A DNA stretch of 64,000 nt from Bdellovibrionales bacterium (GCA_965242635.1 OZ251471.1:1332322-1396321), one strand, 5' to 3'. Shown: positions 16,089-52,476, counted from the first letter of the stretch. A program made the numbers and translations. Notes: generated from the sequence alone by a model not told the origin.

Positions 16089-16421
16089 TTACTTTTTTAC
16101 CACCTCTTTTATCCCTTTAAAGCCTTCTTTCATTTCTGACTTGAGATCATCGAATTTTTTGTTTGTGTCCTGTCTAAGTTCATCGAATTTTTTGTTTGTG
16201 TCCACTCTGAGATCATCTGTCTTTTTGTTTGTATCAGTGATATGGTTGTCCAGCTTCTCGTTTATATGTTTTAACTCACCTCTGATAATCTCCATATTGG
16301 CTTTATTCTCATATCTGAATTCCCTCCTCAAAAAGAAGAAAAACACAATAAAAGCAATGACCAGGATTAAAATGTTGGCAGTGGTTTGCTCGGATAAAAG
16401 GTTTATCAAAAAAGGCTTCAT
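16089..16421 (-). CDS. N-terminal TM / coiled-coil protein, NHITDTNK family copy A
   Basis: TM helix, LDNHITDTNKK core, three 33-nt (11-aa) repeats at 16147-16235. Confidence 0.8.
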   Translation of the reverse strand: MKPFLINLLSEQTTANILILVIAFIVFFFFLRREFRYENKANMEIIRGELKHINEKLDNHITDTNKKTDDLRVDTNKKFDELRQDTNKKFDDLKSEMKEGFKGIKEVVKK

Positions 16422-16427
16422 GCCCTC

Positions 16428-16455
16428 ATTATAGCAGAGGACCAAGTTTTGTCAA
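16428..16455 (-). promoter_or_regulatory. Sigma70-type promoter giving a leaderless transcript
   Basis: TTGACA-16nt-TATAAT-6nt-ATG(16421). Confidence 0.8.
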
Positions 16456-16594
16456 GATGTGTTGAAAAATAGCCAACCGGGGCATTTTAAGGCCTCTGTT
16501 TCGCCAAAAAGGGCCTGATGAGGCGGTAAAAAGGGCCTGACTGCCCATATTATGGAGCTGATCTCAAAGTCAGGTTTTTTTAAGGCTTAAAGGC

Positions 16595-16975
16595 TTAGCG
16601 GGCCTGCCTTTTGTTTATACTCTCCCGGATCTCCGCCCCTTCAATGCTGAGCGAGGTCCAGGGCAGGGCCATAAGCCTTTCCGGTTCAATATACTCGCCT
16701 GTCTCTTCACACACGCCATAACAGCCCTGCTCTATCCGGGCCAGAGCCATTTCCACAGCCATAAGCCGGCCGTTAATTCTCTCGTTTCTGTATAAAAACT
16801 CTTTTTCTTCCATAAGCCGGACAGTCTGATCCCCTTCATCCCCTTTTTGATCCTCTGCAAAAAGCATGTCGTGTCGTGCCTCCCGCACCTGATTAAGCAG
16901 GTCTGTTTTGGTTTTCAGCAGTTTTTGTTTGCATTGATCCAAAATTTTTTTTGGAATTTCGTTTGTGGACATCAT
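16595..16975 (-). CDS. dksA: DksA/TraR family transcription factor
   Basis: Coiled coil with GDEGD tip, ALARIEQGCYGVCEETGEYIEPERLMALP; AGGAGAGG RBS. Confidence 0.85.
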   Translation of the reverse strand: MMSTNEIPKKILDQCKQKLLKTKTDLLNQVREARHDMLFAEDQKGDEGDQTVRLMEEKEFLYRNERINGRLMAVEMALARIEQGCYGVCEETGEYIEPERLMALPWTSLSIEGAEIRESINKRQAR

Positions 16976-17188
16976 GGCACCTCTCCTTGGTTAAAGTCCC
17001 GGCCCTTCCTCCCGAAGGGCCTTGTTGGCTGGTTAAAGGTTTTTTAAGTTTGCCTTTAAAATCTTTAAAAGCAAAAAACTTTAAGGACTTAAAGCCTAAC
17101 AGGGGCCGGGCAATATGTCATGTGTTTATTTGGCCCTTTGAGCCATAAGCCCTTCTGCCTTTTGAATCGGTTTTTGGGGCTAAAACTT

Positions 17189-17337
17189 TAAAAATACTTT
17201 GAATTATTGGCTTTTTTGGCCAAAGAATCAGAGAAACAGTCAAAGACAAAAGAGCTAATCATGGAGTTTGGGATGGGAAAATTCTGGTCTTTGGTCTGTG
17301 CACTTTTAATCAGGAGGCCTTGTCTTCTGGTGCAAAA
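17189..17337 (+). repeat. Degenerate copy of the antiporter 5' region (18327-18476)
   Basis: Both begin taaaaatactttgaattat and end cttctggtgcaaaa, with shared internal blocks (aaagaatcag, tttgggatggg, tggtctttggtctgtg). Confidence 0.85.
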
Positions 17338-18173
17338 AACCACCCTTTTGTCCAGCCCTTTTTCAGCCTCTGGTTTGTTTTTTTGACAAAGGATGGGTTT
17401 TTTTCAAACCCTATGAATTTTCGGCCGGATTTCAGACAAACAGTGGGCACAGTCCCCACGCCACAAAAAGGATCCAAAACAATATCCCCTTTGTTGGAGC
17501 TGGCCCGGACAATTCTTTCTATCAACTTTTCCGGTTTTTGGACCGTGTTTAAAGCATGTCTATCCACCAGCTCTTTGGACTTGTAAGTCAGTTGTTTTAT
17601 ATCCCCCCACACATCGCCGGGGTTTTTTCCTTTTTCGTTAAATTGAGTCATGCCCCATTTCCCGTTTTTGACAGAGGGCACATTTTCGCATCTCTTTCTG
17701 TGTTCTATCTCCACCAGCTGAGGGACCCTGATATCGTTTAGGTTATAGGTTTTGGCACGTTCCCCTTTCACGAAATAACATATAATGTCATAGTTATTGG
17801 TCCAGTTAATCCGTCCCTGAGCCAGCCGGCTGGGCTGATACCACACAATTTTTCTTTTGAGATTGAGATAGGGTGTATAGTCTATAAAATCCACACAGTC
17901 CGGTTTTCCAAAGAGGTAAAGGCTCGCACCAGGGGCCATTTTTTTGGAGAGTATTTTGATAAGCTGAAGATTATATTCCTGGATATTGGCAATTTTATCC
18001 CATTTGTTGGCGGTGACCCCATAAGGCCCATCACAGATGATAAGGTCTATGGAGGCAGGCTCAACCTGATGTATCAGATCAAAAAAATCCCCGCATAGCA
18101 CCACCCCTGGACACCTGTTGGAATGGATGGTTGGCTTGGAGGAGGGGGATTTAAGCTGGCTCATCAGTATCAT
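17310..18173 (-). CDS. Orphan beta-class N4/N6 DNA methyltransferase
   Basis: IDLIICDGPYG (motif IV variant), KNPGDVW, QKPEKLIERIVRASSNKGDIVLDPFCGVGT (motif I), FIGFEKN; no endonuclease nearby. Confidence 0.9.
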   Translation of the reverse strand: MILMSQLKSPSSKPTIHSNRCPGVVLCGDFFDLIHQVEPASIDLIICDGPYGVTANKWDKIANIQEYNLQLIKILSKKMAPGASLYLFGKPDCVDFIDYTPYLNLKRKIVWYQPSRLAQGRINWTNNYDIICYFVKGERAKTYNLNDIRVPQLVEIEHRKRCENVPSVKNGKWGMTQFNEKGKNPGDVWGDIKQLTYKSKELVDRHALNTVQKPEKLIERIVRASSNKGDIVLDPFCGVGTVPTVCLKSGRKFIGFEKNPSFVKKTNQRLKKGWTKGWFFAPEDKAS

Positions 18174-18267
18174 GGTTTAAAAGCTCCTGCTAAGCTGATC
18201 CATCAGTATCATGGTTTAAAAGCTCCTGCTAAGCTGATCCATCAGTATCATGGTTTAAAAGCTCCTG
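18153..18267. repeat. 39-bp tandem repeat, about 3 copies, spanning the MTase RBS and start
   Basis: Unit aagctgatccatcagtatcatggtttaaaagctcctgct at 18153, 18192 and 18231. Confidence 0.95.
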
Positions 18268-18399
18268 TCTGGTTTAACCAAAAGCTCTGGTCTACTTATA
18301 ATCGGCGGGTTTTTAAGGGTCAAGTATAAAAATACTTTGAATTATCAGCCGATTTTGGCTAAAGAATCAGGGGAAACAGTAGCAGTAAAGGAGTTTGAC

Positions 18400-19377
18400 A
18401 TGTGGTTTTGGGATGGGGTCATTTTGGTCTTTGGTCTGTGTGCTTTAATCAAGGGGGCGGACCTTCTGGTGCAAAAGTCCGCTCTTTTGTGTAGACGCTT
18501 TTCTCTCTCCCCTTTCTTTGTGGGGGTGGTGCTCCTGGGCATGGGCACCTCCGCCCCGGAGGCCGGGGTGTCAGCCCTATCCTCCCTAAAGGGTCTCTCT
18601 CATCTGGCGGTGGGAAATGTTTTTGGGTCCAATATTTTTAATATCCTGTTGGTTTTGGGCTTGATACTTTTTCAACCTCTTCCCTTAAAAAAAATCACCG
18701 GCAGAAAAAAGGACATCTGGTTTTTGGTTTTGACCGGGTTTGTTCTGGGCCCTTTGATGTGGGACCTTTTTCTCTCACGCCTGGAGGCTTTTTTATTAAG
18801 CCTTTTGTTTTTTGGCTATATGCTGATCTGTTACTTTAACTCCGGCCGGGAGGCAAAAGATCTCCTGACCGGGGGAGGGCCGGCAACAGCCAGGCTCCCG
18901 GTGGGTTCTTTTGGTTTGGCGGGCCTTTCTTTTTGGATGGGTTTGGGCTTTTTGTTGTTGGCGGGGGGGGCACATCTGACAGTGATGGGGGCAGAGGGGC
19001 TGGGACGAAGATGGGGCATTTCAGAAAGAATACTGGGGCTTTTGGTGGTGTCGGCGGGCACCAGCCTTCCGGAGTTTGTGGCCTCTTTGACGGCACTGAT
19101 AAAAGGGCATAAGGACATGGCAATAGGTAATATTATTGGCTCCAATGTGTTTAACACTTTTGCCATTTTGAGCCTGGCTGTGTGGATTAGACCAGCCCCT
19201 TTGGATATGAAAATGCTGGTCCTGGACCTGCCCGCCCTTTGGATCACTCATCTTCTTTTGTTGGTTCTCATTTTTGGATACCACCTGAAGTGGGTGCAAA
19301 AAGTTCTGCCTTATGTGTTTTTTATGGCCTACGGGGCCTTTCTTCTAAGCCTCTTTCTTTATCCTGAGGCGGGATAA
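18400..19377 (+). CDS. Ca2+/Na+ antiporter (YrbG family)
   Basis: Two alpha repeats GTSAPE/GTSLPE and GNVFGSNIFN/GNIIGSNVFN; AAGGAG before ATG 18400. Confidence 0.93.
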   Translation: MWFWDGVILVFGLCALIKGADLLVQKSALLCRRFSLSPFFVGVVLLGMGTSAPEAGVSALSSLKGLSHLAVGNVFGSNIFNILLVLGLILFQPLPLKKITGRKKDIWFLVLTGFVLGPLMWDLFLSRLEAFLLSLLFFGYMLICYFNSGREAKDLLTGGGPATARLPVGSFGLAGLSFWMGLGFLLLAGGAHLTVMGAEGLGRRWGISERILGLLVVSAGTSLPEFVASLTALIKGHKDMAIGNIIGSNVFNTFAILSLAVWIRPAPLDMKMLVLDLPALWITHLLLLVLIFGYHLKWVQKVLPYVFFMAYGAFLLSLFLYPEAG

Positions 19378-19487
19378 CACCTCCAAGCCAATTTTGGTAT
19401 AAGTGTGTAAATTTTTCACGGTTACAGGGGATAAAACTCAAATAATGCCTCTTCTCTAAAAAAAATCACAGGGTTTGGATATTTTTC

Positions 19488-19516
19488 TTGACAAAAACCT
19501 GTTCAAGGCACATAAT
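19488..19516 (+). promoter_or_regulatory. Sigma70-type promoter, probably leaderless
   Basis: TTGACA-17nt-CATAAT-7nt-ATG(19524), no SD. Confidence 0.55.
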
Positions 19517-19523
19517 GTAAAAC

Positions 19524-19877
19524 ATGGAAAAAAGAGAAAAAAACCCATCTTTGGAACCCTCTGGTGAGGAAAAAGCCTTTGTCTGCCAACAGGCCATGGA
19601 GCTTGGGCCTTTTTTGGCCGGAAGTGGCGGGGGCCCTGTGGCGGTGGTTTTGGAAAAAAACAAAGGGAAAAAAGGTGAACGTTTTGCCGTCACCTTTATT
19701 TTGATTCCCGACAAGTTCAATATCAAAATTCGGGCCAAGGGGGATAATCTTTTTGATGTCTGTAAGGATGCCAAAGATCAGGCCAAAAAAACCTTAAGCC
19801 TTATCATGAACCAGCAGGATTCCCCCATGAGGGATATGCACATGGCTCATCTCAAAAAATTCCCTTACCTTCAATAA
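19524..19877 (+). CDS. Hypothetical protein (weak HPF/RaiA-like appearance)
   Basis: 117-aa ORF with its own promoter; 'IRAKGDNLFDVCKDAKDQAKKTL' recalls the HPF helix. Not confirmed. Confidence 0.55.
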   Translation: MEKREKNPSLEPSGEEKAFVCQQAMELGPFLAGSGGGPVAVVLEKNKGKKGERFAVTFILIPDKFNIKIRAKGDNLFDVCKDAKDQAKKTLSLIMNQQDSPMRDMHMAHLKKFPYLQ

Positions 19878-21117
19878 AATTCACAGGAAAGCCCAGCTTT
19901 TTTAACAGGGCCTTTTGGTTTGGTTTGGAAAGGCTGGTCAGAGGAAGAGCGGGAACAATATAAAGGGCCTGGATTTTTTCAAAAGGGGATACTTTCCTGT
20001 TAAATTCCCGGATGGTGCCAATGAGGGCTTTTTGGTTCCAAATATCTGTTGTCACAGTGATTTGCCAGCCTTCTCTTTCAGAGGGAAGAGGCAGGAGATA
20101 AGCCCGCCCAGCAAAAGAATTTTTGAGCAAAAGACGGGTGAATCGATCTTTTAGATCAGGAATATCCACTTTTTCCCCCAATATTTTGATGAATTCCGCT
20201 CTTCCCACCTGCAAAAACCGGCCTTTTTGGACTTTTCCCAGATCTCCTGTCTTATACCAGGAATTTTTACGGTTTTGAAAGTGTATATTAAATGGGGCAG
20301 ATTTTGCCGCAGGAGCTGGTTTATTTAACAGAGGGGGGGCAAGAGGGACAAAGCCCGTGAGCAGGCTTTCTGACTTGAGAATGATCTCCCCTTTGATGAT
20401 TTTGACCTCAACATGAGGGAGTATTTTTAAAGCCGGCAAAGAGGAGGGGTCTTTCAGGGAGCCGGGTTCTGCTGTGGCCACCTGAGAGCCACACTCGGTC
20501 AGGCCATAAGTGGGAAGAAGAGGCCATTTGAGGGCCCGGGCCAACTGATAAAGACCGGGGCTTAAGCTCTCCCCGCCCACCAAAGCCAGCCTGAGGGCCG
20601 GGGGGGCCGGGAGCTTGGCCTGAACCAAATCATAAACCTGTGTGGGCACAAGAGAGCAAAGGCTGATTTTTTTCTCTTTTAAAAAATAACAAAAAGCTTT
20701 GGCCCCCCACTTTTTCCTGTAGACAAAGCAGGGGCTTTGAGAGAGATGGGCCCGGGCGGTTATGGCCAGCCCTCCCACATGAAAAAGGGGCAAACAAAGC
20801 CCCCATCGGTCTTTTGAGCTGACTTCAAGGTGCTGATTGACGGCCTGAGCGGAGATCAGCATGGCTTTTTTGGAAAGAGCCACCCATTTTTGCTGTGTGC
20901 GACCGGAGGTGGCGAGCCACACATGCCCTTTCAAACGGGGGAGCCGGGGAATGGAATTTAAAAAAAGGGCTTTATTCGCATGCTTTTTATTAAAAAAAAG
21001 TGAGGTTCTTTCTGAATCCCAATCCACTTTTGAGGGATTGATTTGATACAGTTTGGGGGTGGGGCCAGGGCCAGGGCTTGGCTTATGGGGGAGAGCTCTT
21101 TTTGGTTTCCGAATCAT
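19852..21117 (-). CDS. menE: O-succinylbenzoate-CoA ligase-like AMP-binding enzyme
   Basis: TSGRT, LPLFHVGGL, SLVPTQ, YGLTECGSQ, TGDLG, GEKV. Confidence 0.8.
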   Translation of the reverse strand: MIRKPKRALPHKPSPGPGPTPKLYQINPSKVDWDSERTSLFFNKKHANKALFLNSIPRLPRLKGHVWLATSGRTQQKWVALSKKAMLISAQAVNQHLEVSSKDRWGLCLPLFHVGGLAITARAHLSQSPCFVYRKKWGAKAFCYFLKEKKISLCSLVPTQVYDLVQAKLPAPPALRLALVGGESLSPGLYQLARALKWPLLPTYGLTECGSQVATAEPGSLKDPSSLPALKILPHVEVKIIKGEIILKSESLLTGFVPLAPPLLNKPAPAAKSAPFNIHFQNRKNSWYKTGDLGKVQKGRFLQVGRAEFIKILGEKVDIPDLKDRFTRLLLKNSFAGRAYLLPLPSEREGWQITVTTDIWNQKALIGTIREFNRKVSPFEKIQALYIVPALPLTSLSKPNQKALLKKLGFPVNFIEGKGIF

Positions 21118-21246
21118 AGCCCCCCTGATACACTATTTTTTGATATAAAAAAAGCCCCCCGGCAAAAGAGGGTCTGCCGGGGCCCCAAGCTCCCGGAATT
21201 TTTAAAGCCTGCTAATGGTCTATTTGCTTGGCGGAGGCTTGTTTTT

Positions 21247-21537
21247 TTACCCCAGCTGACGGGTTATAGGGGCTGGACCCACTTCTTCTGTTTCAGAACC
21301 ATCAAACTCCTCTCCACGCTCTGTTTCCTCTTCTTCTGTATCCCCCTCTTCTTCTGTATCCCCCTCCTTGCCCTCTTCTTTATTTTCTTCCTTGTTTTCC
21401 CCGTCGGGTGGGTTTTTGACCGGATCGGGCCGGGCGTTCTGGCTTATAGAGAACTGATGATCTTTAAAGCCCCCCGGTTCCTTTAAAGGGGCACAATTTA
21501 AAATAAGGGACAAAAGAACAAAAATGAGCCATTTCAT
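21247..21537 (-). CDS. Small lipoprotein with acidic low-complexity tail
   Basis: MKWLIFVLLSLILNC signal/lipobox-like start after AGGAGA; E/G-rich tail. Confidence 0.6.
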   Translation of the reverse strand: MKWLIFVLLSLILNCAPLKEPGGFKDHQFSISQNARPDPVKNPPDGENKEENKEEGKEGDTEEEGDTEEEETERGEEFDGSETEEVGPAPITRQLG

Positions 21538-21764
21538 ATATCTTCTCCTTTTTCCTGGGCTAAAGGCCACTCTCTTTTTATCGGCTTTGGTCCTGATTTT
21601 CTTAAGCCTTTTGACGGGCCGGCCCCCAGGGACCGCATAAAAGAGACATCCGGGGGGCCAAAACCGTCCAAAAGTGTCCAAGTTGGCCTTTCTCGACAAA
21701 TCTTATTTCTGTGGTATAGTGGGTATGAGTATGGGGGGGGTATAAATTTATCAGCAATAACCGG

Positions 21765-21792
21765 TTGACAAAGCTTGTTTCTGTGCTATAAT
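21765..21792 (+). promoter_or_regulatory. Sigma70-type promoter giving a leaderless transcript
   Basis: TTGACA-16nt-TATAAT-6nt-ATG(21799); degenerate upstream duplicate at 21693-21730. Confidence 0.8.
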
Positions 21793-21798
21793 GGGTGT

Positions 21799-22059
21799 AT
21801 GAGTTTAAACAAAATCTTGGCCGTTTGTGGCTTTCTTATTCTTTACACAGGATTGCTCTTTGGTGGGTGGGCATGGATGCTTAATGCTCAGACTAAACAA
21901 ATAGAGGCGAAAATAGAGCCTATAAAAGAGCTATTGACCAACCATATCACTGATACCAACAAAAAGATTGAAGAAAACAGCAGAAAAATTGATCGGTTAA
22001 GCGACCGGTTTGACCGGCTTTATGAATTGCTTTTAAAGGAAAAAACCAAAAAACCCTGA
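21799..22059 (+). CDS. N-terminal TM / coiled-coil protein, NHITDTNK family copy B
   Basis: TM helix, LTNHITDTNKK, C-terminal DRFDRLYELLLKEK similar to copies C and D. Confidence 0.8.
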   Translation: MSLNKILAVCGFLILYTGLLFGGWAWMLNAQTKQIEAKIEPIKELLTNHITDTNKKIEENSRKIDRLSDRFDRLYELLLKEKTKKP

Positions 22060-22078: not shown

Positions 22079-22651
22079 ATGAAAGTAATAATTTTCCTTG
22101 GTCTTAGCTTGGCAGGCTGTGTGACTAGTGGGCTTAAAACCCGGTCTGTGGCCCGTGAAGACTGTAATATTGAGAATTATCAGGATTTTATAAACAAGTC
22201 AGGTGTTCATAATTGCGATTTAGCTGGAGCAAATTTTGACCATGCGGACTTAAAAGCGGCGAATTTTGCCGGGGCTAATTTGAAAGGGGCAAGTTTGGTC
22301 CATGCGAAGTTGGTCCGGGCACGCCTGAGAGAGGCTGATTTGGCTTCTGCGGATTTGATGGGTGCGAATTTAGAAGGGGCGGATGTGGCCTCTGCGAATT
22401 TTGCCGGGGCTAGTTTACAAGGAGTGCAATTGGCTTTTGCGTATTTGGAAAGGGCGAACTTGGAAAAGGCGGATTTAAGCCATGCACGACTGGAAGAGAC
22501 GAATTTGATCGGGGCCAATAACTTGGAAAAGGCCAATCTAAAAGGAGCAAGAGTCACTGTTTCCATGGGAGGTTTTTTAAAGTCAAAAGGCTTAAGTGGC
22601 TTTGTTGTTGATTCTTCTTATCGGAAGAGGCGGGGTTGGATAGCACAGTAA
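22079..22651 (+). CDS. Pentapeptide-repeat lipoprotein
   Basis: Lipobox LAGC; many A(D/N)Lxx repeats (ANFDHADLKAANFAGANLKGA...). Confidence 0.9.
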   Translation: MKVIIFLGLSLAGCVTSGLKTRSVAREDCNIENYQDFINKSGVHNCDLAGANFDHADLKAANFAGANLKGASLVHAKLVRARLREADLASADLMGANLEGADVASANFAGASLQGVQLAFAYLERANLEKADLSHARLEETNLIGANNLEKANLKGARVTVSMGGFLKSKGLSGFVVDSSYRKRRGWIAQ

Positions 22652-24591: not shown

Positions 24592-26088
24592 ATGAAATAT
24601 TTGTTTTGTAGGGTTTTCAGGACTTTATATCTGCCTTGGCTTTTATTTTCGTCCATGGCTTTTGGGGCTTTGCCGGCGGTGGAAAGTGCCTTGTATGAAG
24701 ATACTGTTAAAGAGACACAGCTTGAGGTGGTTTTTTTTGAAAGAGAGGGGCAAAACCTTGTTCCCTCCTGCCGGGTGCCGGTGACGGATTACCCGGAAAT
24801 GGAGCAAGTGGATCTTCCTTTTTCCTTCTTGCATGAGCTGTCTGAACCAAAGGGCCACGAAGTGTCTCTTGAAGAAGGGCTGGAGTCAGGAAATGAATCC
24901 CTGGCCCGCTTTGATCTTGAGCCTTGTGCTCCGGACTTAAGTGCCAGACTGGCCGAAAGGGCAGAGCACTTTCAATTATATCCTCAGGTGGCGGTGGCTA
25001 TGCTTCCAGCTTTAGGGTCAGCCCTTGCAAGAGGCAGTGTTTTATTGAGCAAAATACCCAAGCGTTCAGTTGTAGGGACGGGCGTGATAGGTAGTGTGAA
25101 TGTGGCGTCATGTTTTTTGGCGGGTGGCATGGTAGGGCTTGGTGTTTACACACATATAACAGAGGAACAAGCTAAAATTCGTGCTTTGAATGCCGAGAGG
25201 CTGGATTGGGGATGGGTAAACTATGCACCAACAAGCGGTCAGATTTTAGCGGGGGGTGGGGCTACTGCCGGATCTGCTTTGGGTGCCGTTCAAACTCATG
25301 CTTACTTGCCTGCTTTCATGAAGAATAGGAGATCCTTAAAAAACCAAGTATTTCATCGCACCTTGGTTGGAGCCAGTGCGGCAGTGGGAATTGTATGCTC
25401 TGCGGCCGGGGGGGCTGTGGGGTATTTTAGTGCTTATGCTCAAAAAGCCGAATCTGCCTTGGAGAGATCTCAAGAGGCACTAAGTGAGTTTTTCCGTGCT
25501 TTGCCAGAGGCCTACCACCAAACGGTGGAGCAGGAAATAAAATCGCGGGAAAACCTCACCACAGCCCATGAAACAATTGACCGGCTAACTTCAGAGATAA
25601 AAGCCGGGATCATAGCCCAAGAGACACTGGAAAAACAGCTGGCGGAGAAACAAGCCGAGCTGGCGAACACCCAGAGCCTGTTGGAGCAAAGCCAAGTCGA
25701 GTTGACACAGGCACAAAACGAATTGAAAGAGGCTGAGGGGACGCGTGATGAGCTGTCCCAAGCCTTGCAGAAGGAATACCACCGCTCCGTTGAACAGGAA
25801 AGGAGAGCACGGGAGGATTTAAGCAAAGCCCATCAAACAATTGACCGGTTAACTTCAGACATAAAGGCCGGGATCATAGCCCAAGAGGCACTGAAAACAC
25901 AGGTGGCAGAAAAACAAGCCGAGCTGGTGAACACCCAGAGCCTGTTGGAGCAAAGCCAAGTCGAGTTGACACAGGCACAAAACGAATTGAAAGAGGCTGA
26001 GGAAACACGTGATGAGCTGTCCCATGCTTTGCAGGAGGAATACCGCCAATCTGTTGAGCAGAGAATAGAAGACAGCCCGTCGCCATAA
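24592..26088 (+). CDS. Secreted protein with Gly-rich hydrophobic helices and duplicated coiled-coil tail
   Basis: AAGGAG RBS, signal peptide ending AFG, GxxxG-rich segments, 88-aa tandem coiled-coil repeat. Confidence 0.8.
   Translation: MKYLFCRVFRTLYLPWLLFSSMAFGALPAVESALYEDTVKETQLEVVFFEREGQNLVPSCRVPVTDYPEMEQVDLPFSFLHELSEPKGHEVSLEEGLESGNESLARFDLEPCAPDLSARLAERAEHFQLYPQVAVAMLPALGSALARGSVLLSKIPKRSVVGTGVIGSVNVASCFLAGGMVGLGVYTHITEEQAKIRALNAERLDWGWVNYAPTSGQILAGGGATAGSALGAVQTHAYLPAFMKNRRSLKNQVFHRTLVGASAAVGIVCSAAGGAVGYFSAYAQKAESALERSQEALSEFFRALPEAYHQTVEQEIKSRENLTTAHETIDRLTSEIKAGIIAQETLEKQLAEKQAELANTQSLLEQSQVELTQAQNELKEAEGTRDELSQALQKEYHRSVEQERRAREDLSKAHQTIDRLTSDIKAGIIAQEALKTQVAEKQAELVNTQSLLEQSQVELTQAQNELKEAEETRDELSHALQEEYRQSVEQRIEDSPSP
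25563..26060 (+). repeat. Intragenic 264-bp (88-aa) tandem duplication
   Basis: agcccat(g/c)aaacaattgacc at 25563 and 25827; long identical blocks follow. Confidence 0.9.
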
Positions 26089-26319: not shown

Positions 26320-28776
26320 ATGAAAATCAAGGATTTTGCCACAGGCAGATTAGTGAAGGTTTCACCGGAAGAGGAGGTGCGACAGGAATATGAACAAGTC
26401 CTGGTGGAAAGTTATGGGTATAAAAAATCAGAAATGGATATTGAAGTTCCTATCCCACGTGGGACTGGTTATTTTCCGGATCGTGCGGATATTGTTGTAT
26501 TTCAATCCTCTTCCGGCAGAGATCCTGCTAAAGATATTGTGGGAATTGTAGAGACCAAGCGTCCTGAAAGGCAAGACGGATTATCACAGTTGAAATCATA
26601 TATGACAGCCACATCTGCCCTTTGGGGAGTCTGGACAAATGGAGATGATATTGCTTATGTATGCCGGCCACCGGGACAATCTCAAGTTGTGGATAACTAT
26701 ATAAATGATATTCCTGTCAGAGGGCAACCTGTTGACTTTATTGGAAATATCAAGAAGTCAGATCTAAAGCCATTTGAAAGACAACACCTTAAAAGCGTGT
26801 TTCGCAGAATTCTCAGGACACTTTATGCAAATACCAATATCAGTCGCAGAGAAAAATTAGGCAATGAAATGATAAAATTAATTTTCTCCAAGATTGAAGA
26901 TGAGAAAACATATTTGGATCGTCCTCCTGATTTCAGAGCCACAGCAGGTGAACCGCCGGATCAAGTTAAAGAAAGAGTGATTAAATTGTTTAACCGTGTC
27001 AAGAACGAGTTAAAAGAAGATGGTGTTTTCCTGGAGCATGAAAGTGTCACTTTGGATTCCCGATCTGTGACTTGGGTGGTAGGGCAGTTGGAGAGAGGAA
27101 GTCTTTTAAAAACAGACACAGATGTTGTGGGTGATGCGTTTGAGGTGTTTGCGGAATCCCGTTTGGTTGGGGAAAAAGGGGAATTTTTTACGCCCCGTGG
27201 AGTCATTGATTTATCTGTTCGCCTCACCAACCCAAAGATAGAAGAAACAATTTGTGATCCGGCCTGTGGGTCAGGTGGATTTTTAATATACGCCATGAAA
27301 TATATCTGGAAATCCATGACTGATAATCCCCGGTATAAAAATTCACCAAAACTGATGGAACAGAAAAAAAGGATGGCTTCGCGAACAATATTTGGAATTG
27401 ATAAAGAGTCTGATCTTGTAAAAATTGCCAAAGCTTATATGGCCATCTCAGGAGATGGGCGGAGCAATATTATTCATGAAAACTCCTTGCATAAAGTGGA
27501 GGAATTTAACTCTCCTGCCAAAGAAAAATTTGTTAGACAAAACAAGTTTAAAAAATTTAATATTATATTAACAAATCCTCCTTATGGAACTAAAACAAAA
27601 GTGGTGGTATCAGATTCCAGGCACTTTGATCTTGGACATAAGTGGACGAAAACCACTACGGCCGGGTGGAAAAAAAGTCGAATACCATGTCAACGTGATC
27701 CTTATGTGTTGTTTATTGAACGTTGCCTGAATATGCTTGCAGAAAATGGCCGTCTTGCCATTGTGTTGCCGGAAACTGTTTTTCATGCTCCAAAAACAGA
27801 ATATATCAGACACTTTATTATGGAAAGAGCCAGCATTGAAGCCATTATTGGATTACCTCATAATACATTTCGTCCTCATTGCAATGCAAAAACCTGTCTT
27901 TTGGTGTTAAAAAACACAACAAAACAGGCAGAGAATGTAATTATGTCAAACCCAAAAGAAATGGGACATGATCATAATGGCAGGCCCTTGTTGCACCCTG
28001 TGACAGGAAAATTATGGGATGATCTGGTGGTTGTGATGAAAGAATTACAAAAGCCAAAATCATCAAATAATAAGTTTACATTTACTGTTCGTTGGAGTAA
28101 AATTAAAAAGTCAGGCAACCTTATCCCTTCTTACTATCAAGGGCTGGTTATTCCACCTTTAGTTCCAAAAAATCAGATAAAAGTAAATATTGGTGAACTG
28201 GTCAATAAAGGTATCCTGGGAGCTTGGGATGGCCATGGCTCTCCTCCTTCTGAATCAAAAGGAAAAGGAAAAGTTCCTTATATCAGGGTATCAGACATTG
28301 TAAACTGGGAATTATACAGGAATCCTGTCTCAGGGATACCGGAGGATATTTACAAAAAAATGGTACTAAATAAAGAGAAACCCAAAGCAGGTGATATTTT
28401 ATTTGTGCGCCGGGGAAGCTATAGAATTGGAACTGTTGCCATGGCCAGTCCTCAGGACAGCCATGTTTTATTGACAAGAGAGTTGCTTACTTTTAGAATA
28501 CTTAAGCCACATAATTCTTATAATATAGATGCTTTTTACCTTCTGGCTTTGCTGTCTTCAAAATTTGTGCAAGATCAAATTGGTTCAAAAGTATTTGTGG
28601 ATACAACACTGCCAAATATAGGAGATAGATGGAAAGAGCTTATACTTCCCATACATAAGAATGAAAAGGAAATTAACAAAATCAGCAATTTAACCAAGTC
28701 AAGTGTTTTGAAAAAATGGTCAGCACAAAATCAGATTCAGGAGATAAGAAATCAAATGGGCGGGCTTATAACATAA
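26320..28776 (+). CDS. Fused restriction-modification enzyme (type IIG-like: endonuclease, N6-MTase, TRD)
   Basis: EEEVRQ..., ADIVVF...IVETK (HSDR_N-like PD-(D/E)xK), GEFFTPR, CDPACGSGGFL, NPPYG, C-terminal S-subunit-like region; visibly AT-richer than flanks. Confidence 0.88.
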   Translation: MKIKDFATGRLVKVSPEEEVRQEYEQVLVESYGYKKSEMDIEVPIPRGTGYFPDRADIVVFQSSSGRDPAKDIVGIVETKRPERQDGLSQLKSYMTATSALWGVWTNGDDIAYVCRPPGQSQVVDNYINDIPVRGQPVDFIGNIKKSDLKPFERQHLKSVFRRILRTLYANTNISRREKLGNEMIKLIFSKIEDEKTYLDRPPDFRATAGEPPDQVKERVIKLFNRVKNELKEDGVFLEHESVTLDSRSVTWVVGQLERGSLLKTDTDVVGDAFEVFAESRLVGEKGEFFTPRGVIDLSVRLTNPKIEETICDPACGSGGFLIYAMKYIWKSMTDNPRYKNSPKLMEQKKRMASRTIFGIDKESDLVKIAKAYMAISGDGRSNIIHENSLHKVEEFNSPAKEKFVRQNKFKKFNIILTNPPYGTKTKVVVSDSRHFDLGHKWTKTTTAGWKKSRIPCQRDPYVLFIERCLNMLAENGRLAIVLPETVFHAPKTEYIRHFIMERASIEAIIGLPHNTFRPHCNAKTCLLVLKNTTKQAENVIMSNPKEMGHDHNGRPLLHPVTGKLWDDLVVVMKELQKPKSSNNKFTFTVRWSKIKKSGNLIPSYYQGLVIPPLVPKNQIKVNIGELVNKGILGAWDGHGSPPSESKGKGKVPYIRVSDIVNWELYRNPVSGIPEDIYKKMVLNKEKPKAGDILFVRRGSYRIGTVAMASPQDSHVLLTRELLTFRILKPHNSYNIDAFYLLALLSSKFVQDQIGSKVFVDTTLPNIGDRWKELILPIHKNEKEINKISNLTKSSVLKKWSAQNQIQEIRNQMGGLIT

Positions 28777-28858
28777 AAATTCTATCAGTTATTTTGGACC
28801 AATGACAACCGGTGGTTTTTTGTAAGAAAGAGTGGTCCAAAGAGAAAGGGATTGAGCT

Positions 28859-46993: not shown

Positions 46994-47177
46994 GTGTTTG
47001 AACTCAATCCCAATGGGGCCTGATTGTTATTGTCAGGCCCCATTATCCTCTGTTTTAAAGTGGAGGTCATTATGTTTTTTTTATTGACGGCACGGGTGGC
47101 CTCTGATACATGACAGCCCCTGAAACAATCAGGATTTTGGTATGGCAAAAGCAAAAAATGATCTTCAGAGGATGTTC

Positions 47178-48341
47178 ATGAAAAATTGTCTCTGGACCAG
47201 TGAGTCGGTATCCGAAGGCCATCCGGACAAGGTGGCCGATCAGATAAGTGACGCTTTGTTGGATGCTTTCTTAAAGCAGGACCCCGAAAGCCGGGTGGCC
47301 TGTGAAGTGATGGTGACCACGGGCCTCGCAGTGGTGGCCGGCGAGGTGAGTGCGAACTGTTATGTGGATGTGCAAAAAGAAACCCGTCAGGTTATCAAAC
47401 GGATTGGCTATGATCATGGGAAAAAGGGCCTGGATTACAAGTCCTGCTCGGTGCTCACCGCTATCCATGAACAGAGTCCGGACATTGCACGGGGGGTCCG
47501 GGAAAGTCAGGGCTTCTCCCAAGGGGCGGGCGATCAGGGCCTGGTCTTTGGCTATGCCGTCAATGAGACAAAAGAGTATATGCCCTTGAGCCTCTCCCTT
47601 TCACACAAATTGATGAAAACTTTGGCCCGGCTCAGAAAGGGAGGCCATGCATGGGCCAGGGAGCATATATGGCCGGACAGCAAAAGTCAGGTGACGGTGG
47701 AGTATCAGGAGGGCCGGGTGAGGAGTATTCCCTCCGTGGTGCTTTCCACTCAACACTCACCTGATACAAAAATGCCGGACTTAAAAGAATTTGTTATGGA
47801 GGAGTTGATTAAGAAAGTGGTCCCGGCCCGGTTTTTAAGCAAAAAGTCCCGGTTTTATATCAACCCCACAGGGCGTTTTGTGATAGGAGGGCCGGCAGGG
47901 GACTCAGGCCTGACAGGCCGTAAAATCATTGTGGACACCTACGGGGGGCATGGGGCACATGGAGGAGGGGCTTTTTCTGGAAAAGATCCTTCCAAGGTGG
48001 ATCGCTCCGGGGCTTATGTGGCCCGGCACATTGCCAAAAATATTGTGGCCAGTGGCCTGGCCTCAAAATGCCTTGTGCAGATAGCTTACGCTATTGGTGT
48101 GGCCCGGCCTGTGAGCCTTTCCGTTGAGGCCTATGGCACTTTGTGTGTGGAGGAGCAAAAACTGGTCCGGGCCATTCAAAAACTCTGGGACTTGAGGCCC
48201 CACAGCCTGATTAAGGAGTTTGATCTCAAAAAACCCATTTACGCCAAAACCGCCAGTTATGGGCATTTTGGGAGAAATGAGACAGGCTGGACATGGGAAA
48301 AACTAAACAAAGTGTCTGCCCTTAAAACCGAATGCCGTTAA
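47178..48341 (+). CDS. metK: S-adenosylmethionine synthetase
   Basis: [43 protein letters not shown]. Start placed 6 nt after AGAGG; ATG 47142 is an alternative. Confidence 0.98.
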
Positions 48342-48406
48342 TACAAAAACCTGGTATGAGGGCAAAAGTGGAGGTCAAAACCCCAATATTTTGTGGTTTT
48401 GACCCC

Positions 48407-48434
48407 TTGACAGGCTTTTATCCTGTGTTATAAT
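48407..48434 (+). promoter_or_regulatory. Sigma70-type leaderless promoter with upstream 10-bp inverted repeat
   Basis: GGTCAAAACC-12nt-GGTTTTGACC, then TTGACA-16nt-TATAAT-6nt-ATG(48441). Confidence 0.8.
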
Positions 48435-48440
48435 GGGGAT

Positions 48441-48815
48441 ATGGGTTTGGCAGAAATATCCGCTTTTTTTGAGCAGTCTGTCCCGATTGGGATTGTCGGC
48501 ATAATAGTTTATCTTGCTATAATAAGCAGGGATATGAAGTATATTAATGAGAAGTTGGATAATCATATCACTGATACAAACAAGACGATCGATGATAACA
48601 GACAAGAAATTCATGCTCTCAGACAAGAAATGAGGGAAGGTTTTGCCAAACAAGATGATCGTTTTGACAAAATGAATGATCGTTTTGACAAAATGAATGA
48701 TCGTTTTAACAAAATGAATGATCGTTTTGACAAAATAAACGACCGGTTTAACAAACAAGATGATCGTTTTAACAAGTTGTATGATCTTCTTGTGCAGGAA
48801 AAAGTGGCAAAATAA
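48441..48815 (+). CDS. N-terminal TM / coiled-coil protein, NHITDTNK family copy C
   Basis: TM, LDNHITDTNKT, 21-nt DRFDKMN-type heptad repeats. Confidence 0.85.
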   Translation: MGLAEISAFFEQSVPIGIVGIIVYLAIISRDMKYINEKLDNHITDTNKTIDDNRQEIHALRQEMREGFAKQDDRFDKMNDRFDKMNDRFNKMNDRFDKINDRFNKQDDRFNKLYDLLVQEKVAK

Positions 48816-49053
48816 CTTTTTTCGGCCCCTACTCACTTTCTGGATATGAGCGGGGCACTAAACAGGCCTTTTCTCATGAATATTTCCCCTTTTTCCGATA
48901 CCTGTTATTGTATTTATCGGCCAGCCCCCGAAAAACTTAAGTTTTTTTCTGGATTTTAGCGGAAGATCTGGCCTTTTTGGCCTTTAGGTGGAAAAAATGA
49001 GAGGACCAGCATGCGGTCGCAACAATCACCCACTCAAAACATCCCTCAAGATA

Positions 49054-49350
49054 TTAGAGCTTACTTCTTTTTTTGGGTTGTGTTTTATTACTATTTTTAT
49101 CTTCCTGCTTTTTTAGTAACTTTATAATTTTTTCACCAGGAATAACAGCAATAACTCTTGCTCCGGTTTTAAGCTTAAAGTTTTTTGAAATTCTATTTCT
49201 GCTCACCTTTATTTTTTTTCCGTTATCTTGGGCTAACACTACCTTTTTTTTATCATAGCTCACCACAATACCTTCTACTGTAAAATCAGCAACAGCTGAA
49301 AAAAGGAAAGGTGAAAAGAATAAAACACTGTTGAGCAATACTATTTTCAT
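49054..49350 (-). CDS. Small secreted basic hypothetical protein
   Basis: Signal peptide ending AVA; beta-rich, Lys-rich; co-oriented with the upstream gene. Confidence 0.7.
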   Translation of the reverse strand: MKIVLLNSVLFFSPFLFSAVADFTVEGIVVSYDKKKVVLAQDNGKKIKVSRNRISKNFKLKTGARVIAVIPGEKIIKLLKKQEDKNSNKTQPKKRSKL

Positions 49351-49362
49351 ATCTATATTCCT

Positions 49363-50124
49363 TTATCGAACAGAACCACCCTCCCAAGAAGGTGTCATCT
49401 TAACAGGTTTATTTTCTTCAGGTTGATCATCGTCTATACCATAGGACCTTAGCTTACTTAGATTCTCTGCATAGATTGATTCTGTGAGATGTTTTGACTC
49501 ATCTAAGATACATTGTGTTGGTGAGGGACACTTTTTATCTGATTCAGCTCGGCAATAAGCAGTAGTGTTAATCGGTTGACCATCTATTATACAATACAAA
49601 TTTGCAATGCAAGAAGTTTCACCCGGACACCTTATGGACCGTATGACATAGGCGGTATCTGTATAAGTGCACTGAACCGTTCTTTGTTTATTCGGTTTTC
49701 TGCTTAATTCACCTAAAGTTCCTTTTCTTTGTGTTCCATCTTTGTCTTCGTATAAAACAGTGCTGTTATCAAACACAACCCCATATTCAGGGTTTATTTG
49801 AATTTCATTTCTTCCCAGTGGGATCCCTTTTGGTTCTAACTTTGATATTACTTGTTCTATTATCCAATCATCATTGTTAACATTTTTGGGGTTTTGATAA
49901 TAGAGGGCTTTTTGGGGAGGGGAATTTAAGGTTTCTTTCTCTATTATTTCATTTTTGCTGTTTATAACTTGAATTCTTAGAGCTTTCGGTCTTGTGTCAT
50001 GTTTTATGAATCCTGAAATACCTCCTTCACAATGAAAGGAAGTGCAATTAGTAAAACATCTCGCCTGTGCCTCAAAATTGCACCCTACTTGGGCTTGTGC
50101 AAAAGGGATAAAAAATCCGAACAA
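49363..50124 (-). CDS. Cys-rich secreted hypothetical protein (true start probably further upstream)
   Basis: AQA cleavage motif, N- and C-terminal Cys clusters; frame stays open upstream to 50268; AT-rich. Confidence 0.7.
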   Translation of the reverse strand: MFGFFIPFAQAQVGCNFEAQARCFTNCTSFHCEGGISGFIKHDTRPKALRIQVINSKNEIIEKETLNSPPQKALYYQNPKNVNNDDWIIEQVISKLEPKGIPLGRNEIQINPEYGVVFDNSTVLYEDKDGTQRKGTLGELSRKPNKQRTVQCTYTDTAYVIRSIRCPGETSCIANLYCIIDGQPINTTAYCRAESDKKCPSPTQCILDESKHLTESIYAENLSKLRSYGIDDDQPEENKPVKMTPSWEGGSVR

Positions 50125-50221
50125 TATTAAAGAAAAGTTTTGTATACCAAAAATTAAAGAGAAAGTGAGAGAGGCGACGGCCTTGGGTCTTATATGTGAG
50201 TCAACACTTATGACGCGGTGC

Positions 50222-50239
50222 GGGGGGGGGGGGGGGGGG
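50222..50239. repeat. G18 homopolymer
   Basis: 18 consecutive G between the divergent genes. Confidence 0.85.
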
Positions 50240-50627
50240 TGACCAAAATATTCAATGATTTTAAGTATTTACAGAAACTTCCCAAGGGGAATACAGGTGG
50301 GGCGAAAAGCCTCCTTGCGGGACTTGGTGATTTTATTAACTTACATGCATTTCTTAATAATTTGGACATTTTTTTTGCTCCTTTGGCGACTGATCCAGTC
50401 AGTTGTATTTTAACCTTCAGAGCTTTAAGCTTAGCTCATCATGGGCCGGGACACAAGAACCAAGGATATTTCTGGACTTCAGTCCAACTGATTTAAGCAA
50501 AAACCTCCAAAAACAGCCCAAAAAAGAGGTTTTGACCCCCCGACAGGCTTTTATTCTGTTATTCTTATTGACGACTGGCCAATTTTCGGCTATCTTGGAA
50601 TTGAATTCCAACATGGACGAGGATAAA

Positions 50628-51851
50628 ATGTTTCAGAGAACTCTCTCTCCTGTGATTCGGGAGGTTTCCTCCTGTTTTCCTGTTTTGCTTTTAACAGGGC
50701 CCCGTCAAGTGGGCAAAACCACCCTTCTTGAAATGTTGGCAAACTCCCATCGCCGTTATGTTACTTTGGACAATCTGAACTCGCGAAACCTGGCTCAAAA
50801 AGACCCTGCTTTATTTATTCAGACCTTTAAGCCCCCTGTCATTATTGATGAAATCCAGTATGCTCCCCATTTGTTCAGCTTTATTAAAATGGAAGTGGAT
50901 CGTCAAAAACAAAAGCCGGGGATGTATTGGATCACAGGTTCACAAAAATTCAGCTTGATGAAGGGGATAACAGAAAGCCTGGCTGGTCGGGTGGCTGTTA
51001 TGGATTTGCTGGGGTTTTCTCAAGCGGAAATGGAAGGCCGGCCCAAAACTTCCCCTTTTTTGCCCACCACCAAGTGGCTCAATAAGGCCCGCAAAAACTT
51101 TAAGAGGGAATGGAATGCCAAAACCCTTTATCATCGTATTTGGCAGGGATCTTTTCCAAAAGTATTGGAAATGTCAGTCAAACAGCGAGATATTTATTAC
51201 AGCTCCTACATACAAACTTATATTCAAAGGGATGTCCGGGATATGGCAGGAGTTTTTGATGAGATCAAATTTCATAATTTTATTACTGCTGTTTCCGCCC
51301 GCACGGGCCAGTTGCTGAACTATGCCGATTTGGCCAGAGATATTGCCATTGACAACAAAACAGCAAAATCCTGGCTTTCCATTTTGCGAGCTGGTGGTCT
51401 GGTTTACCTGTTACAACCCTGGCACAGCAATCTTGACAAGCGGTTGGTTAAAACCCCCAAGCTTTACTTTTTGGATACAGGTTTGGCCAGTTATCTCACC
51501 AAATGGACGGATCCGGAGACTTTATCCAAAGGAGCCATGTCCGGTTCCATACTGGAGACCTGGTTTTTCATTGAAATTTTAAAAAGCTATTGGCATGCAG
51601 GCCAGACAGCTTATTTTTATTTTTATCGCAATAAAGACATGCGAGAGGTGGACCTGCTGATAGAAACAGCAGAAAACTTTTACCCTGTGGAGTTTAAAAA
51701 AACAGCTTCCCCATCCCAGAAGGAGATAAAAAATTTTTCCTTGCTTAAAAATGTGGGCAAAAAGACAGGGCCGGGAGCTTTGCTCTGCCTTGTTGAAAGA
51801 GATATCCCCCTTTCCCGCTCTGTCATCGCCTTACCAGCCACTTATCTTTGA
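50628..51851 (+). CDS. AAA+ ATPase, AAA_14 + DUF4143 (COG1373) family
   Basis: GPRQVGKTT, IDEIQYAP, TGSQKF, ESLAGR, KTPKLYFLDTGL, REVDL; GAGG before ATG 50628. Confidence 0.9.
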   Translation: MFQRTLSPVIREVSSCFPVLLLTGPRQVGKTTLLEMLANSHRRYVTLDNLNSRNLAQKDPALFIQTFKPPVIIDEIQYAPHLFSFIKMEVDRQKQKPGMYWITGSQKFSLMKGITESLAGRVAVMDLLGFSQAEMEGRPKTSPFLPTTKWLNKARKNFKREWNAKTLYHRIWQGSFPKVLEMSVKQRDIYYSSYIQTYIQRDVRDMAGVFDEIKFHNFITAVSARTGQLLNYADLARDIAIDNKTAKSWLSILRAGGLVYLLQPWHSNLDKRLVKTPKLYFLDTGLASYLTKWTDPETLSKGAMSGSILETWFFIEILKSYWHAGQTAYFYFYRNKDMREVDLLIETAENFYPVEFKKTASPSQKEIKNFSLLKNVGKKTGPGALLCLVERDIPLSRSVIALPATYL

Positions 51852-52022
51852 AAGGACTTTACTCTCACTTGATGAAAATTGGGTTTTCATGAGAATATGT
51901 GCTGGATTTTAGGCAGTCCCGGGGTCTTATCGGCCAGCACCACCCGCAGAGCTACTGCTTTTATTCGGGTCAAATTGGAAAAAAGGAGGGTCAAAACCCC
52001 AATATTTCGTGGTTTTGACCCC

Positions 52023-52050
52023 TTGACAAGCTTTTATTCTGTGTTATAGT
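52023..52050 (+). promoter_or_regulatory. Sigma70-type leaderless promoter
   Basis: TTGACA-16nt-TATAGT-6nt-ATG(52057). Confidence 0.75.
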
Positions 52051-52056
52051 GGGGGT

Positions 52057-52476
52057 ATGGGTTTGGCAGAAATATCAGCTTTTTTTGAGCAGTCTGTCCC
52101 GATTGGGATTGTCGGCATAATAGTTTATCTTGCTATAATAAGCAGGGACATGAAGTATATTAATGAGAAGCTGGATAATCATATCACTGATACAAACAAG
52201 ACGATTACTGCTCTCAGAGTTGATACAAACAAGACGATTACTGCTCTCAGAGTTGATACAGGCAAGAAAATCGATGATAACAGACAAGAAATTCATGCTC
52301 TCAGACAAGAAATGAGGGAAGGTTTTGCCAAACAAGATGATCGTTTTGACAAAATGAATGACCGTTTTGACAAAATAAACGACCGTTTTAACAAAATAAA
52401 CGACCGGTTTGACAAACAAGATGATCGTTTTAACAAGTTGTATGATCTTCTTGTGCAGGAAAAAGTGGCAAAATAA
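52057..52476 (+). CDS. N-terminal TM / coiled-coil protein, NHITDTNK family copy D
   Basis: Paralogue of 48441-48815 with two extra 11-aa repeats (TNKTITALRVD). Confidence 0.85.
   Translation: MGLAEISAFFEQSVPIGIVGIIVYLAIISRDMKYINEKLDNHITDTNKTITALRVDTNKTITALRVDTGKKIDDNRQEIHALRQEMREGFAKQDDRFDKMNDRFDKINDRFNKINDRFDKQDDRFNKLYDLLVQEKVAK

Follow-up and report, generated by a model that had tools for sequence, protein, structure and literature searches.

A genus-restricted family of small membrane-anchored proteins with promoters abutting the start codon in Bdellovibrionales

Borrelia has many paralogous bdr genes, each under its own promoter, and the Bdr proteins that they encode carry KID/KIE tandem repeats and reside in the inner membrane (PMC4370689; PMC10016077). 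Here we describe a gene family for which Bdr (KID-repeat; PFam80, IPR003900) appears, by its architecture, to be the closest analogue in kind, although the family is not a member of Bdr. Four copies, A to D, lie in a 64,000-nucleotide stretch (the window; positions 1,332,322-1,396,321) of a Bdellovibrionales genome that forms a single contig of 2.0 Mb with 44.7% G+C. Each encodes an N-terminal membrane anchor, a conserved neck of the NHITDTNK type and a predicted helical rod, and each has a promoter that abuts its start codon.

The likeness to Bdr extends to several traits: multi-copy genes for small inner-membrane proteins, a promoter for each gene and a variable count of short tandem repeats, with the repeat DTNKK(I/F)D recalling the K-I-D/K-I-E core. 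The anchor of Bdr is a single C-terminal hydrophobic segment, whereas the anchor here is N-terminal and is the sole hydrophobic segment in all members; in addition, Bdr genes belong to cp32 prophage-plasmids and linear plasmids of a spirochaete, whereas the present genes are chromosomal and belong to a Bdellovibrionales genus. To our knowledge, neither leaderless geometry nor the reassortment of anchor modules has been described for Bdr. Pfam scans of 4 + 7 family proteins returned no Bdr/KID-repeat profile, and the only Borrelia-named match, to Borrelia_orfA in one protein, reached 18.8 bits against a cut-off of 25.8 bits.

Two other described groups come close in build. In ZapG, an N-terminal membrane helix leads into a coiled coil that lies in the cytoplasm, and its gene is conserved, single-copy and free of tandem repeats. 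The best curated match of the family was to ZapG/YhcB (PF06295, DUF1043), with 26.1 bits against a cut-off of 33.5 over residues 18-99 of copy C, while the NCBIfam ZapG model gave 22.8 bits against a cut-off of 150. The architecture and charge bias fit ZapG/YhcB, with the topology here being a predicted one; unlike ZapG, the family varies from 0 to 27 matches per genome, has no fixed position and carries its own NHITDTNKKID motif, and with scores below both cut-offs we rejected membership. The DUF1640/CCDC90-like proteins (PF07798) likewise form small rods in which 11- and 7-residue periods recur and a membrane helix occupies one end, and the weak matches P0010-P0012 and P0154 have near-identical repeat units (DxRFDKV/M, IDETNKRID) and a C-terminal anchor. 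The anchor of the present proteins is at the opposite end, however, and a head domain is absent; no motif-bearing member matched PF07798, and a related motif-less protein scored 16.7 bits against a cut-off of 33.5.

Leaderless genes whose promoter abuts the start codon are themselves well known, e.g., lambda cI transcribed from PRM and many actinobacterial and Deinococcus genes. These share with the present family a -10 hexamer placed 6-8 nt 5' of the ATG and the lack of a Shine-Dalgarno (SD) sequence. What differs is that the geometry is here inherited by a whole paralogous family, across species, in a host that uses SD sequences.

The four copies and their start-site geometry

Calling of open reading frames (ORFs) recovered all four genes of the preliminary description: copy A (110 aa; 16089-16421, - strand), copy B (86 aa; 21799-22059, + strand), copy C (124 aa; 48441-48815, + strand) and copy D (139 aa; 52057-52476, + strand), the last being a recent duplicate of C. 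As had been proposed, every copy has a single N-terminal membrane helix, and the segments of A, of B and of C together with D represent three unrelated types. Copy A joins a type II anchor (LINLLSEQTTANILILV...RREFRYENK) to an NHITDTNKK neck, three hendecads of the form DTNKKFDxLRx and a type Y C-terminus (MKEGFKGIKEVVKK). Copy B combines a type III anchor (FLILYTGLLFGGWAWML) with an NHITDTNKK neck and a type X C-terminus (RFDRLYELLLKEK), and copy C a type I anchor (MGLAEISAFFEQSVPIGIVGIIVYLAII) with an NHITDTNK neck, heptads of the form (N/Q)DRF(D/N)K(M/I/Q) and a C-terminus of type X; the ending RF(D/N)(R/K)LY(E/D)LL is indeed present in B, C and D and not in A. Stalks of variable length, made of 33-nt and/or 21-nt repeats, had been claimed for the whole set. 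Tandem Repeats Finder detected them in three copies: a 33-nt repeat x2.7 in A (11-residue units; 16144-16232, - strand), a 21-nt repeat x6.5 encoding the heptads of C (48640-48786, + strand), and both a 33-nt repeat x2.4 (52188-52267, + strand) and a 21-nt repeat x5.5 (52322-52436, + strand) in D. The claim does not extend to copy B, in which the same program found no tandem array.

An exact search for TTGACA-N16-TATA(A/G)T-N6-ATG gave four matches in the window, all of them at A-D, and not one in 100 dinucleotide-preserving shuffles, which bears out the fixed geometry attributed to all four copies. A scan for consensus promoters independently placed A-D as the best sites of their regions, with scores of 12/12, 12/12, 12/12 and 11/12, and in every copy the -10 box is TG-extended and ends 6 nt 5' of the ATG. 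These promoters lie at 16428-16455 (- strand) for A, with TTGACA-N16-TATAAT, at 21765-21792 (+ strand) for B, at 48407-48434 (+ strand) for C and at 52023-52050 (+ strand) for D, whose -10 box reads TATAGT. A gap of 6 nt leaves no space for an SD sequence, and none is present, as previously stated. Given this spacing, the mRNA is predicted to start at about the ATG and to be translated free of an SD; genes of the A-D type are thus probably expressed leaderless, with the mRNA beginning at or within 1-2 bases of the start codon.

The preliminary description had rightly cautioned that leaderless-type starts also occur at 19524 and 55376, each with a 7-nt gap. Genome-wide, a scan with relaxed criteria for leaderless geometry ahead of an ORF of 40 codons or more gave 35 sites, of which at least 10 belong to the family, all of these with N16 and a homologous spacer. 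Leaderless-type geometry is therefore also found at non-family genes, with the family strongly enriched. Among old paralogues (70-87% DNA identity), homology begins at -34 or -33, the first base of the -35 box, and extends into the ORF by way of a conserved spacer (aaCCTtaaTCCTGTG), the -10 box and a 6-nt discriminator rich in G. At 18/39 loci of other species, a -10 box with at least 5/6 matching positions lies 5-8 nt before the family ATG, at exactly 6 nt in 13 of them and TG-extended in 17, against a background of 3.5% of all ATGs in the 39 loci by the same -10 criterion; several further loci of other species have TG-n-TTTAAT at an equal distance, as judged by eye. Because the geometry is kept across other species, it looks like an ancestral trait of the family.

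Copies away from a promoter begin differently. The genome holds a tandem trio of family genes (genome 1,509,744-1,510,587) in which the promoter is present at the first gene only, while GGAGGT precedes the second and third, which indicates that the host uses SD initiation for copies that are not promoter-proximal. GGAGG also precedes the gene downstream of B. Upstream of B, a degenerate promoter copy (TCGACA-16-TATAGT) with a 5' gene fragment (tttatcagcaataaccgg), at 21693-21764 (+ strand), is joined directly to the working promoter, and the junction recurs at two other loci. Namely, B, genome 976,862 and genome 1,510,354 each have a second, partly degenerate promoter together with the opening 7-8 codons of a type I gene, and the fusion junction common to these three loci reads ...TATCAGCAATAAC(C/T)GG joined to TTGACA, which is a trace of illegitimate recombination. 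A G8 tract lies at 21733-21740, within the degenerate copy before B.

Promoters of the family type also occur without a family ORF, at genome 1821401 and 1825871 (+ strand) and at 1760628 (- strand), and read TTGACAAAC(T/C)TT.GT.CT.TG.TA.AGTGGGG. Two of them, 4.5 kb apart, are followed by a shared non-ATG sequence, ataaatttcgctgtcat(t/c)ccagtgaaaga, and one by a truncated 5' gene fragment. In addition, tandem arrays abut two family promoters, upstream of genome positions 1884790 and 528660, one unit being 11 nt long (cagctcaaaac; ~6 copies) and the other ~60 nt (at least three times).

Family size, distribution and the conserved neck

A hidden Markov model (HMM) profile built from the four copies gave 14 matches below E=1e-10 in the genome, and a six-frame motif scan combined with the profile matches raised the count to ~21 open motif-bearing genes; all motif-bearing copies in the genome are open frames. 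The earlier count of four thus holds within the window and covers a part of a family with ~21 members genome-wide. Genomes of the same genus contain 0-27 matches each, with at least one match in 12/15, whereas a single weak match (E=7e-5) was obtained in another genus of the same taxonomic family and 0 matches at E<=1e-6 in 300 further genomes sampled evenly across 170 genera of the phylum.

We further searched 1.84 billion representative proteins with the profile and obtained at least 278 clusters (50% identity level) at E<=0.001. Almost all of the 150 clusters inspected share one plan, consisting of a short N-tail, one hydrophobic helix, a spacer, the neck motif L-x-N-H-(I/V)-T-(D/E/G)-T-(N/D)-K-K-I-(D/E) and a charged repeat-rich helix. 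The family loci that could be placed on contigs all come from metagenome-assembled genomes labelled 'Bdellovibrionales bacterium', and short-read contigs break at family genes. We conclude, with high confidence, that the gene family is real, and that it is genus-restricted.

The conserved neck was described as a DNA-level core. The 23-nt NHITDTNK word aa(c/t)catatcactgatac(a/c)aacaa is present in all four copies, with 4 occurrences in the window against 0 expected, and to this extent the description is right; across the family, however, the core is conserved as protein. In 13 motif copies here and 37 from other species, the N, I, T, D and K codons vary synonymously about as they do in the genome, and the His codon alone is clearly skewed, being CAT in 45/50 copies. 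With synonymous positions varying freely in 50 copies, we rejected a DNA element, whether a recombination site or an RNA element, and ascribe the DNA identity of the core in A-D to amino-acid constraint and relatedness.

Searches of Pfam, NCBIfam, PADLOC, PHROGs and PDB sequences returned nothing above threshold, only generic coiled-coil or apolipoprotein-type matches; a PHROG of unknown function scored 33.7 bits. The family neither maps to a characterised Pfam nor holds fixed syntenic positions. No relatives were found in 2.9 million IMG/VR viral contigs or 50,697 GenBank phage records, apart from a single weak coiled-coil match, and an origin from phage or plasmid was rejected for lack of relatives in viral contigs or phage genomes. 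A full-text literature search for a motif of the NHITDTNK type gave nothing relevant. The family is undescribed, having neither a curated profile nor a solved relative.

The same searches bear on the suggestion that the genes encode a small effector. On this account each protein would be a small membrane toxin, holin-like or part of a defence/effector cassette, whose membrane helix would harm a membrane, be it that of the producing cell, of a prey cell or of a competitor, and the dispersed copies would be addiction, defence or effector modules. The proteins are indeed small and single-pass, their copy number is highly variable and their positions are non-syntenic; a few copies lie near an AAA ATPase pair (1546 kb), an ImmA/XRE pair (911 kb) or a serine recombinase (1190 kb), and the 33.7-bit PHROG leaves some room for such a function. 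Yet the copies have no conserved partner or antitoxin gene and mostly look monocistronic, and a near-consensus constitutive promoter is unlikely for a toxin. Moreover, conservation is concentrated in the neck and rod, while the membrane helix comes in unrelated types. The best PADLOC score was at most 18 bits, and no phage or toxin-family match was obtained. An effector function therefore found no backing, and we regard it as highly improbable.

Further small families with a membrane helix and repeats are present in this genome without the NHITDTNK neck (genome coordinates 28436-28792, 271378-271788, 1706460-1706759 and 1932561-1932950 on the - strand and 327181-327570 on the + strand), together with a tandem array of five such genes at 94353-96799 (+ strand). 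In one of these neckless families, a type III anchor (TATFLVLYTGFIFAGFGWML) is combined with a basic tail that reads QNTHHKGK..., while ELKADMAEV repeats characterise the other, and both have promoters that abut or nearly abut the ATG.

Module exchange, insertion sites and turnover

Across the genome, the proteins combine three anchors with two C-termini. Type I anchors read xLSAISAFFEQSVPIG..., type II anchors LINLLSEQTTANILILV...RREFRYENKANM and type III anchors LVLYTGLLFAGFSWML, while the C-terminus is either of type X, as in copy B, or of type Y (MKEGFKEIKE), and all six combinations occur within this genome. Exchange is visible in the DNA as well. Between -34 and +267, copy A matches the gene at genome 1,410,336, and beyond this point the two part ways: the C-terminal portion of the 1,410,336 gene matches B and 460,431, that of A matches 1,884,578 and 976,862, and all of these matching segments have a similar DNA identity of 76-83%. 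It follows from this pattern that modules have been reassorted among paralogues, and the modular build put forward in the preliminary description is substantiated by both the six of six combinations and the DNA-level switches.

To place the copies in their chromosomal context, we compared the three sites (A, B and C/D) with those of 11 congeners, whose housekeeping proteins are 59-79% identical. All three sites are empty in 11/11. At site A, dksA-like and agmatinase-like genes converge within ~0-90 nt in 11/11 congeners, in one case with overlapping stops, whereas in this genome they are parted by a 943-bp insert that contains copy A, its promoter and a degenerate lipoprotein gene. Direct reading of the sequence places a 7-bp direct repeat, TTAGCGG, on both sides, with the left repeat (15645-15651) holding the stop codon of the agmatinase-like gene and the right one (16595-16601) that of the dksA-like gene on the - strand. 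Two modules that are each multi-copy, the family unit and a lipoprotein leader, make up the insert, and conserved termini were not seen. As regards features of a transposable element, a 7-bp repeat is seen at one insert (A), paralogue homology is limited to promoter and ORF, and no adjacent transposase was seen at family copies.

At site C/D, most congeners have a CopG-like gene downstream of metK, followed by lepA in 8/11, and none of the 11 has a family gene downstream of metK. Here, metK is followed by copy C (junction region 48341-48441), the CopG-like gene is absent and lepA is 0.55 Mb away (region 1932561-1933631 of the genome), where it adjoins a gene of a related anchor-sharing family. 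With the metK/CopG-like/lepA order broken, C sits at a synteny breakpoint. At site B, no family gene lies upstream of comM in any of the 11 congeners.

A recent event is the duplication of C and D, whose unit begins 76 nt ahead of the ATG, ends 24 nt beyond the stop and thus holds a hairpin, the promoter, the ORF and 24 nt. Its 5' edge is formed by an inverted repeat, GGTCAAAACC...GGTTTTGACC (48373-48404, + strand); as a family-specific element this upstream hairpin was rejected, since GG(C/T)CAAAACC words are 8-15x over-represented genome-wide. The two ORFs differ by 6 synonymous and 2 non-synonymous changes, and D has a 66-nt (2 x 33) insertion and a 21-nt deletion, such that the indels are exclusively in-frame whole repeats. 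This pattern points to probable purifying selection, with whole-repeat change as the fastest mode of divergence. In other species, the 150 nt that follow the gene contain no start of a same-strand ORF of 45 codons or more at 23/39 copies.

The terms self-contained and dispersing, both used in the preliminary description, are borne out: each copy has its own promoter and the C/D unit is minimal, while the empty sites, the A insert with its 7-bp repeat and the spread of 0-27 matches per genome speak for dispersal. These comparisons, made on genome sequences, show a family that grows by duplication of a ~0.5 kb unit and lands at non-syntenic sites. Units that are this short, dispersed and repeat-rich could also be non-functional repeated DNA, in which case the ORFs would be by-products of a dispersed promoter-bearing repeat, and truncated promoter/5' fragments and long opposite-strand shadow ORFs might be cited in its favour. 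This account is opposed, however, by the conservation of amino acids amid free synonymous variation, by the few non-synonymous changes and in-frame indels between C and D, by the open state of all genome copies and by the same architecture in the inspected members of 278 divergent clusters, and we assign it next to no probability.

Other repeats in the window lie outside the family genes. A perfect 39-nt tandem repeat x2.7 (100% identity) at 18162-18267 overlaps the 5' end and upstream region of a DNA-methylase-like gene (17310-18173, - strand) and lies just upstream of a membrane transporter gene (18337-19377, + strand), and a 264-nt tandem repeat x1.8 with 92% identity is found at 25563-26044. 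Within the segment between C and D, a run of 18 G at 50222-50239 is a candidate slippage tract; it is intergenic between the divergent genes 49363-50124 (- strand), for a Cys-rich exported protein, and 50403-51851 (+ strand), for an AAA ATPase.

Predicted rods, topology and proposed role

The repeat-rich build of the proteins was examined by structure prediction and residue composition. AlphaFold2 with the family alignment modelled copy C as one unbroken helix over residues 3-123, with a mean predicted local distance difference test (pLDDT) score of 82. Rods of the family have a hydrophobic period of 3.55-3.64 residues, between the values for heptads (3.50) and hendecads (3.67), contain 42-52% charged residues and almost no Pro or Gly, and would be ~9-24 nm long. 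A single helix of such length is stable only as a coiled coil, so the rods are expected to oligomerise. The neck lies a median of 12 residues after the membrane helix and is in register with the first hendecad, such that its Ile and Thr fall in the core with Asn-His beside them; it may set the register or the oligomer state, or bind a ligand, perhaps a small one.

The positive-inside rule relates the distribution of K/R to membrane topology. In 121/132 members, the 15 residues after the membrane helix contain more K/R than the whole N-tail (means 3.1 vs 0.7), and 80/132 N-tails are devoid of K/R and net acidic; over all N-tails, the means are 1.4 acidic and 0.7 basic residues. The charge pattern predicts that the N-tail is translocated and the rod cytoplasmic (N-out/C-in). 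The bias in 121/132 members thereby argues against a fibre that points outwards, and the earlier proposal of a membrane fibre is probably mistaken as to orientation.

Together, these data suggest the following model. Each protein would be a small single-pass inner-membrane protein with a mostly acidic N-tail of 6-13 residues, a membrane helix belonging to one of three or more unrelated modules, a neck that is invariant, h-x-x-h-L-x-N-H-(I/V)-T-(D/E)-T-N-K-K-I-D, and a continuous alpha-helix of ~60-160 residues built of 11-residue (DTNKKFDxLRx) and 7-residue (NDRFDKM) repeats and ending in an X or Y module. Each gene would be transcribed independently of its neighbours, from a sigma-70 promoter that is near-consensus and TG-extended, and would be translated free of an SD. 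The acidic N-tail would be translocated by insertion of the Pf3-coat type, with the K/R-rich flank holding the rod in the cytoplasm, where the rods, tethered by their membrane helices, may associate in pairs or bundles of parallel coiled coils. These membrane-attached rods would come in discrete lengths, and their C-terminal module would recruit or contact a partner. Over time, rod length shifts by gain or loss of whole repeats, and anchors and tails reassort between paralogues. Our best guess, by analogy with Bdr, is that such proteins may act as structural or scaffolding elements on the membrane's inner face. For the model as a whole, that of cytoplasm-facing, membrane-anchored coiled-coil rods with a scaffolding role, we consider the case evenly balanced.

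Several points weigh against this model. The analogy with Bdr is one of architecture and not of sequence homology, and the role of Bdr is itself unknown (PMC10016077). The AlphaFold2 model of C is a monomer and carries no information on assembly. The topology is a prediction from charge counts, and some type III N-tails carry K/R (MKKDSLWP..., MSLNK...) and are ambiguous. As to expression, the extra upstream promoter at three loci could yield some leadered transcripts. Finally, a lipoprotein gene follows each of A and B, which would fit a periplasmic role.

That last point leads to the main competing view, a periplasmic stalk (N-in/C-out) acting as an envelope spacer, as an outer-membrane or lipoprotein tether of the Lpp or Rz-type spanin kind, or as part of a surface fibre; the membrane fibre of the preliminary description corresponds to this view. 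Coiled-coil stalks of variable length are typical of envelope spacers and adhesins, the K/R in the N-tail of some type III anchors would agree with this orientation, and the profiles of an Rz-like spanin (phrog_739) and of Lpp gave weak matches, at 22.5 bits and E=0.25, respectively. The SD-led lipoprotein genes, which share a leader, lie 17-50 nt downstream of A (15873-16037, - strand) and of B (22079-22651, + strand); the leader reads MK(T/V)I(L/I)FLGL..GCVTS, and SD and leader are ~82% identical in DNA over ~90 nt, after which the bodies diverge into a Cys-rich, apparently frameshifted sequence after A and a pentapeptide-repeat sequence after B. Such a neighbour is rare, however, being found at 2-3/21 copies here and 2/39 in relatives, and the lipoprotein is a separate multi-copy family: the pentapeptide lipoprotein has 26 matching places in the genome, and the leader DNA alone matches ~12 other loci. 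On these counts we also rejected, as a general arrangement, a two-gene cassette of family gene and lipoprotein. The positive-inside count, moreover, is opposite to a periplasmic stalk in 121/132 members, most N-tails being acidic and without K/R, and the profile scores are far below threshold. A two-component spanin (Rz/Rz1) was set aside in view of the low phrog_739 score, the rarity of lipoprotein neighbours and the opposite predicted topology, and a spanin lysis cassette because no holin or endolysin lies nearby and phage collections hold no relatives. Overall, a periplasmic stalk seems unlikely to us.

Returning to the cytoplasmic rods, a bolder version of that model, which we hold to be rather improbable, sees the family as a combinatorial kit of membrane rods that serve as rulers or tethers in a small-genome predatory or epibiotic bacterium. 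Swappable anchors, a universal Asn-His-Thr neck, length steps of 11 and 7 residues and two tips would let the rods keep, for example, a structure in the cytoplasm at defined distances from the membrane, or remodel membranes in a SNARE-like manner. The kit would spread as a minimal promoter-plus-ORF unit that lacks a transposase and duplicates a short target when it inserts, and leaderless translation would be selected so that any new copy is expressible wherever it is inserted.

The features that stand out are the fusion of promoter and start codon across species and the freedom with which anchors, rod lengths and tips are reassorted. Repeat-wise changes in length and swaps of modules amount to a natural series of variants in which structure and function of hendecad and heptad coiled coils can be related. 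With promoter and start codon inherited as one unit throughout the family, in a lineage that otherwise uses SD sequences, the genes lend themselves well to studying under which conditions, and for what reason, bacteria opt for leaderless translation. They define an unnamed protein family of at least 278 clusters, which is among the most expanded gene sets in a group of small-genome uncultured Bdellovibrionales, and its variation from 0 to 27 between sister species is of the kind that often marks genes for interaction or envelope adaptation.

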